Sequence record: OQ174501.1
DNA length: 64,000 bases
Reading direction: 5' to 3' (one strand)
Origin: Escherichia phage REP2
Positions 24,239 to 43,275 of this stretch are shown in pieces. The position numbers and the translations under genes are program-made. Every line of letters begins with the position of its first letter. The first letter of the stretch is position 1. The notes under the pieces are model-generated. The model was not told the DNA's origin and did not search any database. It saw nothing but the letters and a program-made list of their open reading frames with translations.

Positions 24239-24712
24239 ATGTTATTGACTGGCAAATTATACAAAGAAGAAAAACAAAAATTTTATAATGCACAAAACGG
24301 TAAATGCTTAATTTGCCAACGAGAACTAAATCCTGATGTTCAAGCTAATCATCTTGATCATGACCATGAATTAAATGGACCAAAAGCAGGAAAGGTACGT
24401 GGATTGCTTTGTAATCTCTGCAATGCCACAGAAGGTCAAATGAAACATAAATTTAATCGTTCTGGCTTAAAGGGGCAAGGTGTTGATTATCTTGAATGGT
24501 TAGAAAATTTACTTACTTATTTAAAATCCGATTACACCCAAAATAATATTCACCCTAACTTTGTTGGAGATAAATCAAAGGAATTTTCTCGTTTAGGAAA
24601 AGAGGAAATGATGGCTGAGATGCTTCAAAGAGGATTTGAATATAATGAATCTGACACTAAAACACAATTAATAGCTTCATTTAAGAAGCAGCTTAGAAAG
24701 AGTTTAAAATGA
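24239..24712 (+). CDS. 49: Endonuclease VII (Holliday junction resolvase)
   Basis: 157 aa; zinc motif CLICQ...CNLCN and HxH; matches T4 gp49 as I recall it. Confidence 0.9.
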   Translation: MLLTGKLYKEEKQKFYNAQNGKCLICQRELNPDVQANHLDHDHELNGPKAGKVRGLLCNLCNATEGQMKHKFNRSGLKGQGVDYLEWLENLLTYLKSDYTQNNIHPNFVGDKSKEFSRLGKEEMMAEMLQRGFEYNESDTKTQLIASFKKQLRKSLK

Positions 24713-26526
24713 CAATTGAAAAAGAAATTGAAGGATTGATTCATAAAACTAATAAAGACCTTTTAAACGAGAATGCTAATAAAGATTCTCGTGTTTTTCC
24801 AACTCAACGGGACCTTATGGCTGGTATTGTGTCTAAACACATTGCCAAAAATATGGTCCCGTCTTTTATTATGAAAGCGCATGAAAGCGGAATTATTCAT
24901 TTCCATGATATTGATTATTCCCCTGCTCTTCCATTTACTAATTGCTGTTTAGTAGATTTAAAAGGAATGCTTGAGAACGGATTTAAGCTTGGTAATGCAC
25001 AGATTGAAACTCCTAAATCAATTGGCGTTGCTACTGCAATTATGGCACAAATTACTGCGCAAGTTGCTTCCCATCAATATGGCGGAACGACTTTTGCTAA
25101 TGTAGATAAAGTACTTTCTCCTTATGTTAAACGCACCTATGCAAAACATATTGAGGATGCAGAAAAATGGCAAATCGCTGATGCGTTAAATTATGCTCAA
25201 TCTAAAACAGAAAAAGATGTATACGATGCATTCCAAGCTTATGAATATGAAGTAAATACTCTCTTTAGTTCAAACGGACAAACACCTTTTGTAACAATTA
25301 CATTTGGTACAGGAACTGACTGGACTGAACGAATGATTCAGAAAGCAATTCTGAAAAATCGTATTAAAGGTCTCGGTCGTGATGGGATAACTCCTATTTT
25401 CCCTAAGCTTGTTATGTTCGTTGAAGAAGGTGTTAATCTTTATAAAGACGATCCGAACTATGATATTAAACTGCTTGCTCTAGAGTGCGCAAGCAAAAGA
25501 ATGTATCCTGATATTATTTCAGCTAAGAACAATAAAGCTATCACTGGCTCATCTATTCCTGTTTCTCCAATGGGTTGTCGTAGTTTCTTGAGCGTATGGA
25601 AAGATTCGACTGGCAATGAAATTCTTGATGGACGTAATAATCTCGGTGTTGTAACACTGAATCTTCCTCGTATCGCATTAGATTCTTATATTGGAACACA
25701 GTTCAATGAACAGAAATTTATCGAATTGTTCAATGAACGAATGGATTTATGTTTTGAAGCTTTGATGTGTAGAATTAGTTCCTTAAAAGGAGTTAAAGCG
25801 ACTGTTGCTCCTATTCTTTACCAAGAAGGTGCATTCGGGGTTCGTCTTAAACCTGATGACGACATAATTGAGTTATTTAAAAACGGTAGAAGTTCAGTGT
25901 CTTTAGGATACATTGGTATTCATGAATTGAATATTCTTGTCGGTCGTGATATTGGACAAGAAATTTTAACTAAAATGAATGCTCGTCTTAAACAGTGGAC
26001 TGAAAGAACTGGGTTTGCTTTTAGTTTATATTCGACTCCTGCTGAAAACCTTTGTTATCGCTTCTGTAAACTCGATACAGAAAAATATGGAAGCGTAAAA
26101 GATGTTACTGATAAAGGCTGGTACACTAACAGTTTCCACGTTTCAGTAGAAGAAAATGTTACTCCGTTTGAAAAGATTTCTCGTGAAGCGCCATATCATT
26201 TCATTGCGACAGGTGGTCACATTTCTTATGTTGAACTTCCTGATATGAAAAATAACTTAAAAGGTCTTGAGGCTGTATGGGATTATGCCGCACAACATTT
26301 AGATTATTTTGGTGTTAATATGCCAGTAGATAAATGTTTTACATGTGGAAGTACCCATGAAATGACTCCTACTGAAAACGGATTTGTTTGTTCTATTTGT
26401 GGAGAAACTGATCCTAAAAAGATGAATACAATAAGAAGAACATGTGGTTATTTGGGAAATCCGAACGAGCGCGGATTTAATCTCGGTAAAAATAAAGAAA
26501 TCATGCATAGGGTTAAACACCAATGA
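24709..26526 (+). CDS. nrdD: Anaerobic ribonucleoside-triphosphate reductase
   Basis: 605 aa; C-terminal glycyl radical motif RRTCGYLG and Cys zinc motif; uninterrupted ORF with no intron. Confidence 0.93.
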   Translation: MTIEKEIEGLIHKTNKDLLNENANKDSRVFPTQRDLMAGIVSKHIAKNMVPSFIMKAHESGIIHFHDIDYSPALPFTNCCLVDLKGMLENGFKLGNAQIETPKSIGVATAIMAQITAQVASHQYGGTTFANVDKVLSPYVKRTYAKHIEDAEKWQIADALNYAQSKTEKDVYDAFQAYEYEVNTLFSSNGQTPFVTITFGTGTDWTERMIQKAILKNRIKGLGRDGITPIFPKLVMFVEEGVNLYKDDPNYDIKLLALECASKRMYPDIISAKNNKAITGSSIPVSPMGCRSFLSVWKDSTGNEILDGRNNLGVVTLNLPRIALDSYIGTQFNEQKFIELFNERMDLCFEALMCRISSLKGVKATVAPILYQEGAFGVRLKPDDDIIELFKNGRSSVSLGYIGIHELNILVGRDIGQEILTKMNARLKQWTERTGFAFSLYSTPAENLCYRFCKLDTEKYGSVKDVTDKGWYTNSFHVSVEENVTPFEKISREAPYHFIATGGHISYVELPDMKNNLKGLEAVWDYAAQHLDYFGVNMPVDKCFTCGSTHEMTPTENGFVCSICGETDPKKMNTIRRTCGYLGNPNERGFNLGKNKEIMHRVKHQ

Positions 26527-26993
26527 ATTACGATAGATTTTATCCCTGTGATTTTGTGAATGGCCCTGGATGCAGGGTCGTTCTTTTCGTTACAGGTTGT
26601 TTGCATAAATGTGAAGGGTGTTATAATAAATCAACATGGAATGCTAGAAATGGTGTTCCATTCACTGGTGAAACACTAGAACAATTAATTGAATGTTTGA
26701 ATAATGATTATATAGAAGGATTGACTATAACCGGAGGTGACCCTCTCTATCCTGATAACAGAGACGTGATTCACTCTGTGGTTCAAACTATTAAAAATCT
26801 TTATCCCAATAAAAGCATTTGGTTGTGGACAGGATATAAGTTTGAAGATATTAAACAACTAGAAATGCTTAAATATGTTGATGTTATTATTGATGGGAAG
26901 TATGAGAAAAATCTTCCGACCAAAAAGCTGTGGCGAGGATCAGATAATCAGCGACTTTGGTCAAATACCGATGGGGTGTGGAAACATGATTAA
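26523..26993 (+). CDS. nrdG: Anaerobic RNR activating enzyme (radical SAM)
   Basis: CLHKCEGC radical-SAM cluster motif; 156 aa. Confidence 0.9.
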   Translation: MNYDRFYPCDFVNGPGCRVVLFVTGCLHKCEGCYNKSTWNARNGVPFTGETLEQLIECLNNDYIEGLTITGGDPLYPDNRDVIHSVVQTIKNLYPNKSIWLWTGYKFEDIKQLEMLKYVDVIIDGKYEKNLPTKKLWRGSDNQRLWSNTDGVWKHD

Positions 26994-27107
26994 ATTGAAT
27001 TACATTATGGATACTATAAATGATATGATTTTCATTTTGGTCCAGAATTTTATTCGCAATATAGTTTAGTGCTTATCAATGCTTGGTTAATCAATTAAGG
27101 GTAAAAT

Positions 27108-27323
27108 ATGTATAAATTTCGTAAAGGTTTAGCTGATTTTCTTACAACTGTAACATTCTTTCTGTTTATGGCAGTTGGAGCTATTTTCCTTATTCCTTTT
27201 ATTGTTGTATTTTTCGTGATTAGCTTAATTTCTCCAGAAAAAGGCTTATCTTCTAGTGAGTTCAATGAGCGTCTGGATAAAATTACTAACAAGCTGAATG
27301 CTGTTCTTGATAAAAAGGCTTAA
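27108..27323 (+). CDS. Small membrane protein
   Basis: TM helix FFLFMAVGAIFLIPFIVVFFVISLI. Confidence 0.5.
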   Translation: MYKFRKGLADFLTTVTFFLFMAVGAIFLIPFIVVFFVISLISPEKGLSSSEFNERLDKITNKLNAVLDKKA

Positions 27324-27325
27324 TT

Positions 27326-27637
27326 ATGATTAGTTTTGAGCGGTATGTAGTAGAGAGTTGGAATGGTTTTGATATGTTCGGTAATGACTATTATTTCTAT
27401 GAATGTAGTCTGAACCCAAGCTTCTGGGCTGGACGTGAACAAGACCTCGAAGAAATCAACGCTCGTGCTGATTTGTTAGGTGAACTGCCTACTACTTATT
27501 TCACCTTTGATGAATCCGGCTTCGTTATCCAGGTTTATTTTCCTGAAGAAAACTCTGGTGAGGATTCTGTTAACCCGCCATACTGGGCTTATCAAGGAAT
27601 TATTTCTCGTGGAACAAAACTCGAACTTAAAGAATAA
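27326..27637 (+). CDS. Hypothetical protein
   Basis: 103 aa. Confidence 0.5.
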   Translation: MISFERYVVESWNGFDMFGNDYYFYECSLNPSFWAGREQDLEEINARADLLGELPTTYFTFDESGFVIQVYFPEENSGEDSVNPPYWAYQGIISRGTKLELKE

Positions 27638-27638
27638 G

Positions 27639-27932
27639 ATTGAAGTCTATGGAATTCCAGATGAAGTAGGTCGTTGTCCTGGATGTCAATCAGTTACAAA
27701 ACTTCTAAAGGAGCTCAATGCTCCTTTTACTTTCTATAAAGTTCTTACAAATAACGGTAAGATTGAGTATGATCGTCCGCTGATTGTATCTCTTGCTAAA
27801 CGCGCTGGATTCACATCTCTTAACATTCGTTATCCAGTCATTTTCATTAATGATTCTAGACAAAAGAACATTAAACACTTCAAAGAAACTCTCATTTCAC
27901 TTGGATATGATAGAGATATCATAGAAGACTAA
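27639..27932 (+). CDS. Glutaredoxin-like protein (nrdH position), start codon uncertain
   Basis: CPGC redox motif in KIEVYGIPDEVGRCPGCQ; no in-frame ATG in the non-overlapping part, so a non-ATG start is implied. Confidence 0.5.
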   Translation: MEVYGIPDEVGRCPGCQSVTKLLKELNAPFTFYKVLTNNGKIEYDRPLIVSLAKRAGFTSLNIRYPVIFINDSRQKNIKHFKETLISLGYDRDIIED

Positions 27933-27933
27933 G

Positions 27934-27956
27934 ACGGGCCCTCTGGGCCTTTCTTT
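27934..27956 (+). terminator. Terminator-like hairpin
   Basis: gggccc-tct-gggcc stem followed by a T-rich run. Confidence 0.5.
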
Positions 27957-28021
27957 CTCACATTCTGTATATTACCATTCTAAGCTATCGTTCCCTTCTT
28001 ATCATTCCCTAAAATAATTTT

Positions 28022-28062
28022 CACAAAGTTGTTTACAAGAAGTTCAAACCGTGGTATTATTA
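28022..28062 (+). promoter_or_regulatory. T4 early promoter
   Basis: GTTTAC 28031-28036, TATTAT 28055-28060. Confidence 0.55.
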
Positions 28063-28090
28063 ACATATGAATTACCTTTGAGGAATTGAT

Positions 28091-28267
28091 ATGGTTGATA
28101 AAGAGATTAAAATTGACCAGTACTATCGTGTTAACGGACATATCGTTATTGTTACAGCAGTCGATGATTTAGATGTTCATTATACTGTGATTAAATGGAA
28201 CAAACATATGATTTGTGATCGTGCTGTATTTAGTTCAGTTGCTAAGGAAATTAAACTCCATGGGTAA
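28091..28267 (+). CDS. Hypothetical small protein (58 aa)
   Basis: ATG after gaggaattgat. Confidence 0.4.
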   Translation: MVDKEIKIDQYYRVNGHIVIVTAVDDLDVHYTVIKWNKHMICDRAVFSSVAKEIKLHG

Positions 28268-28553
28268 AACGTATCGTCGTAAAGACTTAAAAGTGCGTGA
28301 TTATGACTATTTTGGAAAGCGTAAAGCTCCAGACGGTGTAAGTCATAAAGATATGGTTGAAAACATTTTTCGCTCAGATAAATGGCGTAGAATGAAAGGT
28401 ATTGATTCAGAAGTTAAAGATGAGCTAAATCGCCAATTACGTGGTGAAGTAAGAAAGTTGAAAAAATCAGTTTACATTGACGATGATTTTGATTATAATA
28501 CTTCTCAACTAGTTGCTAAGCGTAAATCAAACGAGTGCTATCGTTACAGCTGA
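28260..28553 (+). CDS. Hypothetical basic protein
   Basis: Start at ATG 28260 (ORF track starts at 28215); Lys/Arg-rich. Confidence 0.5.
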   Translation: MGKTYRRKDLKVRDYDYFGKRKAPDGVSHKDMVENIFRSDKWRRMKGIDSEVKDELNRQLRGEVRKLKKSVYIDDDFDYNTSQLVAKRKSNECYRYS

Positions 28554-40578: not shown

Positions 40579-43275
40579 ATGAAAGAATTTTATATCTCTA
40601 TCGAAACAGTCGGAAATAACATTGTTGAACGTTATATTGATGAAAATGGAAAGGAACGTACTCGCGAAGTAGAATATCTTCCAACTATGTTTAGACATTG
40701 TAAGGAAGAGTCAAAGTACAAAGACATCTATGGTAAAAATTGCGCTCCTCAAAAATTTCCATCAATGAAAGATGCTCGAGATTGGATGAAGCGAATGGAA
40801 GACATCGGTCTCGAAGCTCTCGGTATGAACGATTTTAAACTCGCTTATATCAGTGATACGTATGGTTCAGAAATTGTTTATGACCGAAAATTTGTTCGTG
40901 TAGCTAACTGTGACATTGAGGTTACTGGTGATAAATTTCCTGACCCAATGAAAGCTGAATATGAAATTGATGCTATCACTCATTACGATTCAATTGATGA
41001 TCGTTTTTATGTTTTCGACCTTTTGAATTCAATGTACGGTTCAGTATCAAAATGGGATGCAAAGTTAGCTGCTAAGCTTGACTGTGAAGGTGGTGATGAA
41101 GTTCCTCAAGAAATTCTTGACCGAGTAATTTATATGCCATTTGATAATGAGCGTGATATGCTCATGGAATATATTAATCTCTGGGAACAGAAACGACCTG
41201 CTATTTTTACCGGTTGGAATATTGAGGGATTTGACGTTCCGTATATCATGAATCGTGTTAAAATGGTTCTCGGTGAACGTAGTATGAAACGCTTCTCTCC
41301 AATCGGTCGAGTAAAATCTAAACTAATTCAAAATATGTATGGTAGCAAAGAAATTTATTCTATTGATGGCGTATCTATTCTTGATTATTTAGATTTGTAC
41401 AAGAAATTCGCTTTTACTAATTTGCCGTCATTCTCTTTGGAATCAGTTGCTCAACATGAAACCAAAAAAGGTAAATTACCGTATGATGGTCCTATTAATA
41501 AACTTCGTGAGACTAATCATCAACGATACATTAGTTATAACATCATTGACGTAGAATCAGTTCAAGCAATTGATAAAATTCGCGGGTTTATCGATCTAGT
41601 TTTAAGTATGTCTTATTATGCTAAAATGCCTTTTTCCGGTGTAATGAGTCCTATTAAAACCTGGGATGCCATTATTTTTAACTCATTGAAAGGTGAACAT
41701 AAGGTTATTCCTCAACAAGGTTCGCATGTTAAACAGAGTTTTCCGGGTGCATTTGTGTTTGAACCTAAACCAATTGCTCGTCGATATATTATGAGTTTTG
41801 ACTTGACGTCTCTGTATCCGAGCATTATTCGTCAGGTTAACATTAGTCCTGAGACTATTCGTGGTCAGTTTAAAGTTCATCCAATTCATGAATATATCGC
41901 AGGAACAGCTCCTAAACCAAGTGATGAATATTCTTGTTCTCCGAATGGATGGATGTATGATAAGCATCAAGAAGGTATCATTCCAAAGGAAATCGCTAAA
42001 GTATTTTTCCAGCGTAAAGATTGGAAAAAGAAAATGTTCGCTGAAGAAATGAATGCCGAAGCTATTAAAAAGATTATTATGAAAGGCGCAGGGTCTTGTT
42101 CAACTAAACCTGAAGTTGAACGATATGTTAAGTTCAGTGATGATTTCTTAAATGAATTATCGAATTACACTGAATCTGTTCTTAATAGTCTGATCGAAGA
42201 ATGTGAAAAAGCAGCTACACTTGCTAACACAAATCAGCTGAACCGTAAAATTCTTATTAACAGTCTTTATGGTGCTCTTGGTAATATTCATTTCCGTTAC
42301 TATGATTTGCGAAATGCTACTGCTATCACAATTTTCGGCCAAGTTGGTATTCAGTGGATTGCTCGTAAAATTAATGAATATCTGAATAAAGTATGCGGAA
42401 CTAATGGCGAAGATTTCATTGCAGCAGGTGATACTGATTCGGTATATGTTTGTGTAGATAAAGTTATTGAAAAAGTTGGTCTTGACCGATTCAAAGAGCA
42501 GAACGATTTAGTTGAATTCATGAATCAGTTCGGTAAGAAAAAGATGGAACCTATGATTGATGTTGCATATCGTGAGTTATGTGATTATATGAATAACCGC
42601 GAGCATCTGATGCATATGGACCGTGAAGCTATTTCTTGCCCTCCACTTGGTTCAAAGGGCGTTGGTGGATTTTGGAAAGCGAAAAAGCGTTATGCTCTGA
42701 ACGTTTATGATATGGAAGATAAGCGTTTTGCTGAACCACATCTAAAAATCATGGGTATGGAAACTCAGCAGAGTTCAACGCCTAAAGCGGTCCAAGAAGC
42801 TCTCGAAGAAAGTATTCGTCGTATTCTTCAGGAAGGTGAAGAGTCTGTCCAAGAATATTACAAGAACTTCGAGAAAGAATATCGTCAACTTGACTATAAA
42901 GTTATTGCTGAAGTAAAAACTGCGAACGATATAGCGAAATATGATGATAAAGGTTGGCCAGGATTTAAATGTCCGTTCCATATTCGTGGTGTGCTAACTT
43001 ATCGTCGAGCTGTTAGCGGTTTAGGTGTAGCTCCAATTTTGGATGGAAATAAAGTAATGGTTCTTCCATTGCGTGAAGGAAATCCATTTGGTGACAAATG
43101 CATTGCTTGGCCGTCGGGTACAGAACTTCCAAAAGAAATTCGTTCTGACGTACTGTCTTGGATTGACTACTCAACTTTGTTCCAAAAATCGTTTGTTAAA
43201 CCGCTTGCGGGTATGTGTGAATCGGCTGGCATGGACTATGAAGAAAAAGCTTCGTTAGACTTCCTGTTTGGCTGA
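40579..43275 (+). CDS. 43: DNA polymerase gp43 (family B)
   Basis: 898 aa; exonuclease and polymerase motifs (YGDTDS, KILINSLYGALG). Confidence 0.97.
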   Translation: MKEFYISIETVGNNIVERYIDENGKERTREVEYLPTMFRHCKEESKYKDIYGKNCAPQKFPSMKDARDWMKRMEDIGLEALGMNDFKLAYISDTYGSEIVYDRKFVRVANCDIEVTGDKFPDPMKAEYEIDAITHYDSIDDRFYVFDLLNSMYGSVSKWDAKLAAKLDCEGGDEVPQEILDRVIYMPFDNERDMLMEYINLWEQKRPAIFTGWNIEGFDVPYIMNRVKMVLGERSMKRFSPIGRVKSKLIQNMYGSKEIYSIDGVSILDYLDLYKKFAFTNLPSFSLESVAQHETKKGKLPYDGPINKLRETNHQRYISYNIIDVESVQAIDKIRGFIDLVLSMSYYAKMPFSGVMSPIKTWDAIIFNSLKGEHKVIPQQGSHVKQSFPGAFVFEPKPIARRYIMSFDLTSLYPSIIRQVNISPETIRGQFKVHPIHEYIAGTAPKPSDEYSCSPNGWMYDKHQEGIIPKEIAKVFFQRKDWKKKMFAEEMNAEAIKKIIMKGAGSCSTKPEVERYVKFSDDFLNELSNYTESVLNSLIEECEKAATLANTNQLNRKILINSLYGALGNIHFRYYDLRNATAITIFGQVGIQWIARKINEYLNKVCGTNGEDFIAAGDTDSVYVCVDKVIEKVGLDRFKEQNDLVEFMNQFGKKKMEPMIDVAYRELCDYMNNREHLMHMDREAISCPPLGSKGVGGFWKAKKRYALNVYDMEDKRFAEPHLKIMGMETQQSSTPKAVQEALEESIRRILQEGEESVQEYYKNFEKEYRQLDYKVIAEVKTANDIAKYDDKGWPGFKCPFHIRGVLTYRRAVSGLGVAPILDGNKVMVLPLREGNPFGDKCIAWPSGTELPKEIRSDVLSWIDYSTLFQKSFVKPLAGMCESAGMDYEEKASLDFLFG

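Follow-up and report, generated by a model that had tools for sequence, protein, structure and literature searches.

A GTG codon within the upstream gene as the probable start of the glutaredoxin-like gene nrdH in Escherichia phage REP2

In the DNA of Escherichia phage REP2 (OQ174501.1), of which one stretch of 64,000 nucleotides (hereafter the window) was analysed, a small gene for a redox protein raises the question of where its translation begins. The frame that encodes the CPGC motif is open from 27480 to the stop codon at 27930-27932, and translation of 27639-27929 contains no Met codon. All three ATG triplets at 27590-27700 are out of this frame, and the sole in-frame ATG of the open frame, at 27510, lies 129 nt upstream of the ATT at 27639 and within the preceding gene ar1_077. 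The preliminary description was correct in recognizing a CPGC-containing, glutaredoxin-like product and in finding no in-frame ATG outside the upstream gene, although the absence of a nearby ATG alone is not statistically remarkable. It also placed the gene downstream of nrdG, which holds for the gene order but not for direct adjacency, as 55.8 and ar1_077 intervene. It then concluded that translation requires either a non-canonical start codon, for example ATT or ATA around 27639, or coupling or reinitiation at the upstream stop. The relevant genes and signals are:

24709-26526, plus strand: nrdD
26523-26993, plus strand: nrdG
27108-27323, plus strand: 55.8
27326-27637, plus strand: ar1_077, the upstream gene (103 aa, PHROG 2749), which shares its final 29 nt with nrdH, in the -1 frame
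27510-27512, plus strand: in-frame ATG at which the AR1 GenBank record begins nrdH (140 aa); not accepted here
27594-27598, plus strand: Shine-Dalgarno AAGGA, 10 nt before GTG 27609
27609-27611, plus strand: GTG, proposed nrdH initiation codon, in frame and 10 codons before ATT 27639
27609-27932, plus strand: nrdH as re-delimited from the open reading frame, its translation and the Pfam match, with a GTG start, 107 codons and the stop TAA 27930-27932
27639-27641, plus strand: ATT, the start proposed earlier; read here as internal Ile11, first residue of beta-strand 1 (IEVYG)
27675-27686, plus strand: CPGC redox motif with Cys23 and Cys26 (numbering of the 107-aa product)
27936-27960, plus strand: intrinsic-terminator-like hairpin GGGCCC-TCT-GGGCC (hairpin 27936-27950) with a T-rich tail, 4 nt past the nrdH stop

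The 661 bases around the gene match Escherichia phage AR1 (AP011113, Tequatrovirus) with 100% identity, where they lie on the reverse strand of the record, and show 95-99% identity to hundreds of T4-like phages. Within this locus, nrdD and nrdG share an ATGA-type overlap (26523-26526), 55.8 and ar1_077 are separated by a gap of 2 nt, and the stop codon of ar1_077 (TAA 27635-27637) ends 1 nt before ATT 27639. Downstream of the terminator-like hairpin follow 55.6 and further genes, and a sigma-70-like promoter (TTTACA-17-TATTAT, 28032-28060) is located ahead of the 55.6 gene. Besides, a short open reading frame at about 26985-27100 occupies the gap between nrdG and 55.8 and overlaps the 3' end of nrdG; it is carried as a 37-aa hypothetical protein in phages Ac3, SHSML-52-1, PhiZZ6, W143 and CT01 and is uncalled in the AR1 and T4 records. 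The small overlapping or antisense frames ar1_075, ar1_071 and ar1_072 of the AR1 record (window 27980-28270; L001 2181-2366), marked there as "No matched to nr", look like over-calls. A simple scan also returned a second terminator-like hairpin (AAAGGAGCTCAATGCTCCTTT with a T-rich tail) at 27707-27727 within the nrdH coding sequence, which is probably a chance match.

The start codon of nrdH is very probably the GTG at 27609, which the preliminary description overlooked because its search was confined to the sequence outside the upstream gene. This GTG sits within the ar1_077 codons CGT-GGA (Arg-Gly), in the last 29 nt of that gene, and the junction reads ...AAGGAATTATTTCTC GTG GAA CAA AAC TCG AAC TTA AAG AAT AAG ATT GAA GTC TAT GGA. 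The AAGGA at 27594-27598 forms a duplex with the 3' tail of 16S rRNA of -5.4 kcal/mol, a strength of -5 kcal/mol or better being reached at about 11% of the window positions. Among the standard in-frame candidates, GTG 27609 has the best Shine-Dalgarno sequence (-5.4 kcal/mol versus +2.6 kcal/mol for ATG 27510 and -1.0 kcal/mol for GTG 27558). Its spacing of 10 nt to the start codon belongs to the long end of the usual range. Translation from this GTG would give MEQNSNLKNKIEVYG...CPGC..., a protein of 107 aa and about 12.3 kDa. The homologous GTG is the annotated nrdH start in phages Ac3, SHSML-52-1, W143, CT01 and RB69, and Ac3 additionally carries the AAGGA as an annotated ribosome-binding site.

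With respect to initiation strength, GUG is one of the three standard start codons of E. coli with 10-100% of the activity of AUG, and it starts about 14% of the E. coli genes (bioRxiv 10.1101/063800). Initiation at AUU, AUA or AUC reaches 1-2% of AUG, and an AUU start is confirmed only for E. coli infC and pcnB (bioRxiv 10.1101/063800). Since a standard GTG with a ribosome-binding site is available 30 bases upstream of the ATT, no exotic mode of initiation is needed, and the claim that the start must be non-canonical does not hold. This claim had arisen because the GTG was not considered and the interior of the upstream gene was left unexamined. Two other in-frame codons, GTG 27558 and GTG 27480, were rejected as starts, as both lack a Shine-Dalgarno sequence and are unconserved or interrupted by stops in relatives. 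Likewise, we rejected a regulatory RNA structure at the nrdH start: a predicted weak hairpin could pair the Shine-Dalgarno sequence with the downstream GGAAUUCC, and the fold of 27575-27665 is no better than that of shuffled sequences (z = -1.3).

A homologue of nrdH is present in 1348 phage records, and we read the junction in about 30 distinct loci from GenBank phages and IMG/VR. In every examined locus of Tequatrovirus, Mosigvirus (RB69, SHSML-52-1), Gaprivervirus (VR26, VR20, CJ20), Dhakavirus (JS10 and relatives) and Kanagawavirus (Q7622, CIP9), a Shine-Dalgarno sequence precedes a GTG in the nrdH frame. The distance from the GTG to the conserved IE(V/I)YG is 5, 7 or 10 codons in these five genera, and the Shine-Dalgarno-like elements are AAGGA, AAGGAG, AAGGTGGT or CAGGGGGT with duplex energies of -5.4 to -8.6 kcal/mol; the equivalents are TAAGGA in T4, AAGGAG in VR26 and JS10, and AAGGTGGT in Q7622. 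In at least eight distinct genomes the GTG is the sole in-frame ATG, GTG or TTG, owing to an in-frame stop shortly upstream (T4, PhiZZ6, three IMG/VR contigs of T4 type [L008-L010], L041, VR26, CJ20, VR20, fDHCT2 and CT01). Furthermore, the upstream gene was deleted on two independent occasions, in the T4 type and in the CT01 type, and the Shine-Dalgarno sequence and the GTG were kept in both. The deletion in Shigella phage CT01 removed about 27305-27564 and joined 55.8 to the final 24 codons of ar1_077.

The codon of ar1_077 that spans the GTG differs between genera (CGT, TGT or AGT for Arg, Cys or Ser): its first position varies, while the G and the "silent" T are invariant, which is the reverse of the pattern expected from selection on the upstream protein alone. 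Nevertheless, the conserved motif YQG(I/V)IS(R/C)G of the upstream protein overlaps both AAGGA and GTG and explains part of their conservation, too. The amino acids of the N-terminal tail of NrdH are loosely conserved (x-Q-N...K). Several substitutions in the overlap are silent in the upstream frame and non-synonymous in the nrdH frame; another one, AAT to AAC, is silent in nrdH and converts the upstream stop to Gln. Concerning selection on this tail, the substitutions are mixed and too few of them are independent.

Outside these five genera, distant homologues have an ATG 1-4 codons before the same Ile or Val; these include Jiaodavirus JD18, Erwinia phage Cronus, Gelderlandvirus STML-198, Acinetobacter phage Kimel, Krischvirus MIZ6, Slopekvirus P-KP2 and Aeromonas phage Aeh1, among others. 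As the starts in the distant homologues are located just ahead of it, the conserved Ile/Val is never residue 1. The Serratia phage CHI14 group (L045, L046; Winklervirus) has neither an ATG nor a GTG start for nrdH. The standard in-frame starts of this group, just ahead of position 601 in both loci, are TTG only, 2 and 5 codons before VEIYG, with weak Shine-Dalgarno sequences of about -3 kcal/mol.

These comparisons bear directly on the ATT at 27639, where initiation, or termination at TAA 27635-27637 followed by reinitiation, would yield a 97-aa protein. The geometry is suggestive, as the upstream stop lies 1 nt before the ATT in AR1, VR26, CJ20 and JS10 and overlaps it as ATTGA in RB69, Q7622 and L041; moreover, ATT is the codon found in most genomes of the GTG clade, and E. 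coli infC and pcnB have been proven to start at AUU (bioRxiv 10.1101/063800). However, the ATT is not preceded by a Shine-Dalgarno sequence (-0.9 kcal/mol), initiation at AUU has only 1-2% of the strength of AUG (bioRxiv 10.1101/063800), and a standard start with a Shine-Dalgarno sequence precedes it by 30 nt. In the T4-type genomes, no stop of an open reading frame adjoins the ATT, the 55.8 stop being located 2 nt before the GTG. Reinitiation at the ATT can therefore not be general for the clade, even though the coding sequence of these genomes is 98-100% identical. The preliminary description had itself named a comparison with homologues as a check, and this comparison speaks against the ATT start: the GTG is conserved across five genera, whereas the Ile codon drifts. 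Two JS10-like genomes (L048, L072) have ATC at this position and keep the GTG, and ATA, ATC, GTT, GTG or GTA occur where an ATG or TTG is located just upstream; across the genomes compared, the codon is ATT, ATC, ATA, GTT, GTG, GTC or GTA. This drift is the behaviour of an ordinary internal codon. The ATA that had been named as another candidate near 27639 does not exist in frame, only the ATT does. On the basis of Shine-Dalgarno strength, codon drift and the T4 layout we rejected ATT 27639 as the nrdH start, and judged from these alignments it is an internal Ile codon. We regard initiation at this codon as very unlikely and, at best, as the source of a minor isoform.

The in-frame ATG at 27510, chosen in the AR1 record, is another conceivable start. 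A protein of 140 aa would result, with 43 N-terminal residues encoded in the +1 frame of ar1_077. This codon is the only in-frame ATG in a frame that is open from 27480, and it has a counterpart in RB69-type genomes. On the other hand, a Shine-Dalgarno sequence is missing (+2.6 kcal/mol), and a start at this position would imply an overlap of 128 nt with the upstream gene. In addition, the region of the 43-residue extension is interrupted by in-frame stops or affected by deletion in T4, PhiZZ6, CT01, VR26, CJ20, VR20 and fDHCT2, and the extension is encodable in no homologue beyond the AR1/RB69 type. A start at ATG 27510 is hence highly improbable.

A further alternative dispenses with a separate start altogether: a programmed +1 frameshift in the terminal part of ar1_077 would make NrdH a fusion with the upstream protein. 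In its favour, an overlap of the two genes is seen in all genera that possess both of them, and in Pectobacterium phage PM2 the ar1_077-like and NrdH sequences form one open reading frame of 199 aa. However, we found no slippery or stimulatory motif at 27600-27637, and the upstream gene is entirely missing from T4 and other genomes. The PM2 frame (L053 307-906; KF835987 41901-42500; homologous to window 27326-27932 and annotated as "glutaredoxin nrdH") comes from the single PM2 genome in the collection. It contains a run of seven A residues at the junction, at about 42,190-42,200 of KF835987, and one added A restores the standard layout with a TAA 1 nt before the ATT and a GTG 7 codons upstream. 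The PM2 fusion is therefore most simply explained by a homopolymer sequencing error or a recent frameshift, and judged from this run it is probably not a true fusion. We consider it extremely improbable that NrdH of the window arises by frameshifting.

Taken together, our data argue for a nrdH gene that starts at GTG 27609 with AAGGA as Shine-Dalgarno sequence, encodes 107 aa, overlaps ar1_077 by 29 nt and is probably coupled to it. In the mechanism that we propose from the sequence comparisons, AAGGA 27594-27598 would place the 30S subunit, and initiation at GTG 27609 would give rise to fMet-EQNSNLKNK-IEVYG... with a total length of 107 aa. As the Shine-Dalgarno sequence and the GTG are both contained in the last 44 nt of ar1_077, with an overlap of 29 nt, ribosomes that finish ar1_077 are expected to keep the nrdH start site unfolded and could in this way aid initiation. 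The first ten residues (MEQNSNLKNK) would then form a short variable tail ahead of beta-strand 1. Thus, of the suggestion that translation depends on coupling or reinitiation at the upstream stop, the tie to the end of the upstream gene is retained, with coupling being plausible at the GTG, while reinitiation at the stop itself is not supported. A literature search for an experimentally determined N-terminus, proteomics or initiation profiling of AR1 or T4 NrdH returned no such data.

The upstream gene itself is widespread, with homologues in 526 phage records from at least six Tevenvirinae genera, and, where present, it is always located immediately upstream of nrdH and overlaps it. It is absent from T4, where it was lost, and is partly deleted in Shigella phage CT01; the 103-aa protein has no Pfam match. 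In every genus with both genes, nrdH has a weak start other than ATG (a GTG or, in the CHI14 group, a TTG) that lies within the terminal part of this PHROG-2749 gene, and one could speculate that this is a conserved device that ties the synthesis of NrdH to translation of the 103-aa protein. If so, the two proteins would cooperate, perhaps as accessory factors of the anaerobic ribonucleotide reductase NrdD/NrdG, whose genes lie just upstream. A minor 97-aa isoform might also result from reinitiation at UAA-G-AUU. We regard such a device as unlikely.

The nrdH product matches Pfam PF00462 (Glutaredoxin; E = 4.1e-5) with 24.1 bits, just above the threshold of 22.9. Its match to PHROG 22 "thioredoxin domain" has an E-value of 5e-16. 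The only relative with a solved structure that was detected by sequence is the T4 glutaredoxin NrdC, also named "T4 thioredoxin" (1ABA and 1AAZ; E = 5e-4). A CxxC after beta-strand 1 and a cis-Pro before beta-strand 3 are both present and align to 1ABA, and C23, C26 and P76 are invariant in an alignment of 13 sequences (A1). Judged by these sequence features, the protein is a member of the glutaredoxin/thioredoxin-fold superfamily. When the product is aligned with 1ABA/1AAZ, the residue encoded by ATT 27639 corresponds to residue 2-3 of these structures, at the beginning of the first beta-strand. A single-sequence structure model was of poor quality (pLDDT 48.5), with residues 1-10 unstructured and the first strand starting at residue 11, and gives a weak hint that the tail is disordered and followed by a strand from Ile11 onwards. 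Concerning function, glutaredoxin activity appears solely as an annotation of the T4 record ("has glutaredoxin activity"), and a literature search for primary data on glutathione-dependent disulfide reductase activity of T4 NrdH found none.

The gene name is a separate matter. NrdH-redoxins of the E. coli type, the reductants of class Ib ribonucleotide reductase, reportedly carry the motifs CVQC and WSGFRP (Jordan et al. 1997 and Stehr et al. 2001, cited in PMC3653736). The phage protein has CPGC instead of CVQC as active site and lacks WSGFRP, and no NCBIfam family matches NrdH at E <= 0.01, just as none matches ar1_077 or 55.8. On sequence grounds, the phage name "nrdH" is historical and the protein is a T4 NrdC-like glutaredoxin paralogue. 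In Citrobacter phage PhiZZ6, a 24-nt in-frame deletion in nrdH (L014 ~901-1167) removes IPDEVGRCP and turns the active site into YGCGCQ, so that this copy may encode an inactivated or altered glutaredoxin.

Public records treat the gene in a discordant manner. It starts at ATG 27510 in the AR1 record (140 aa), at an upstream ATG in Q7622, at an internal ATG in JS10 and fDHCT2 (88 aa) and at an internal start in VR20 (82 aa), the latter three having lost beta-strand 1; PM2 carries the 199-aa fusion, and in PhiZZ6 and some other records the gene is uncalled. Compared with the conserved GTG, the start in the AR1 GenBank record and those in several other records look mis-annotated. The practical value of our analysis is therefore one of annotation quality, as the comparative evidence leads to one consistent nrdH start across these records. 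It also illustrates that searches for start codons must cover GTG and TTG as well as the 3'-terminal part of the preceding gene. The biological import is small, since a GTG-initiated nrdH with a gene overlap is ordinary and the GTG start is already part of the T4 reference annotation.

In T4, nrdH (formerly ORF 55.7; NP_049686) is annotated in the reference genome with a GTG start and 102 aa. The mass of this 102-aa protein, 11,751 Da, agrees with the Swiss-Prot designation "11.8 kDa protein in Gp55-nrdG intergenic region", taken here as quoted in another phage record, and together with the T4 annotation this makes the GTG start the long-standing annotation of the gene. The nrdH gene of the window is orthologous to T4 nrdH, with 98% identity over the shared length, the conserved order nrdD-nrdG-55.8-[ar1_077]-nrdH-55.6 and a GTG that follows a Shine-Dalgarno sequence at a distance of 6-10 nt. 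Both genes are positioned between 55.8 and 55.6 downstream of nrdD-nrdG, share AAGGA and GTG followed by xAA CAA AAy, and have the same terminator past the stop codon. The T4 junction reads ...AGTAAGGAATAG TT GTG AAA CAA AAT AAG ATT GAA GTC..., with a spacing of 6 nt (TAAGGA-ATAGTT-GTG). In contrast to T4, where nrdH directly follows 55.8, AR1 has the additional 103-aa gene ar1_077 between them; as a result, the AR1 nrdH start is embedded in ar1_077 and the spacing between Shine-Dalgarno sequence and GTG is 10 nt instead of 6 nt. Moreover, the AR1 tail contains five extra codons (SNLKN), and the AR1 GenBank record picked a different start, ATG 27510.

Compared with T4 NrdC, NrdH is a distant paralogue: residues 12-83 align to residues 3-73 of NrdC, the CxxC follows beta-strand 1 in both proteins, and the cis-Pro region is common to them (YPVIF in NrdH, MPQVF in NrdC). 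The two differ in the active site (CPGC in NrdH, CVYC in NrdC) and in the N-terminal tail and the longer C-terminus of NrdH; in NrdC, the initiating ATG immediately precedes the first strand (MFKVYG). The preliminary description implied an analogy to E. coli infC and pcnB, which are AUU-initiated and use an Ile codon as start without an ATG. Unlike these genes, nrdH has an in-frame GTG with a Shine-Dalgarno sequence upstream, and its Ile codon varies among homologues. A resemblance also exists to coupled overlapping gene pairs of T4-type phages and bacterial operons, where the second gene has its Shine-Dalgarno sequence and start codon within the 3'-terminal part of the first. With 29 nt, the overlap of ar1_077 and nrdH exceeds the common overlaps of 1 or 4 nt and is well within the normal range, and GTG initiation as well as short gene overlaps are routine in T4-type phages.
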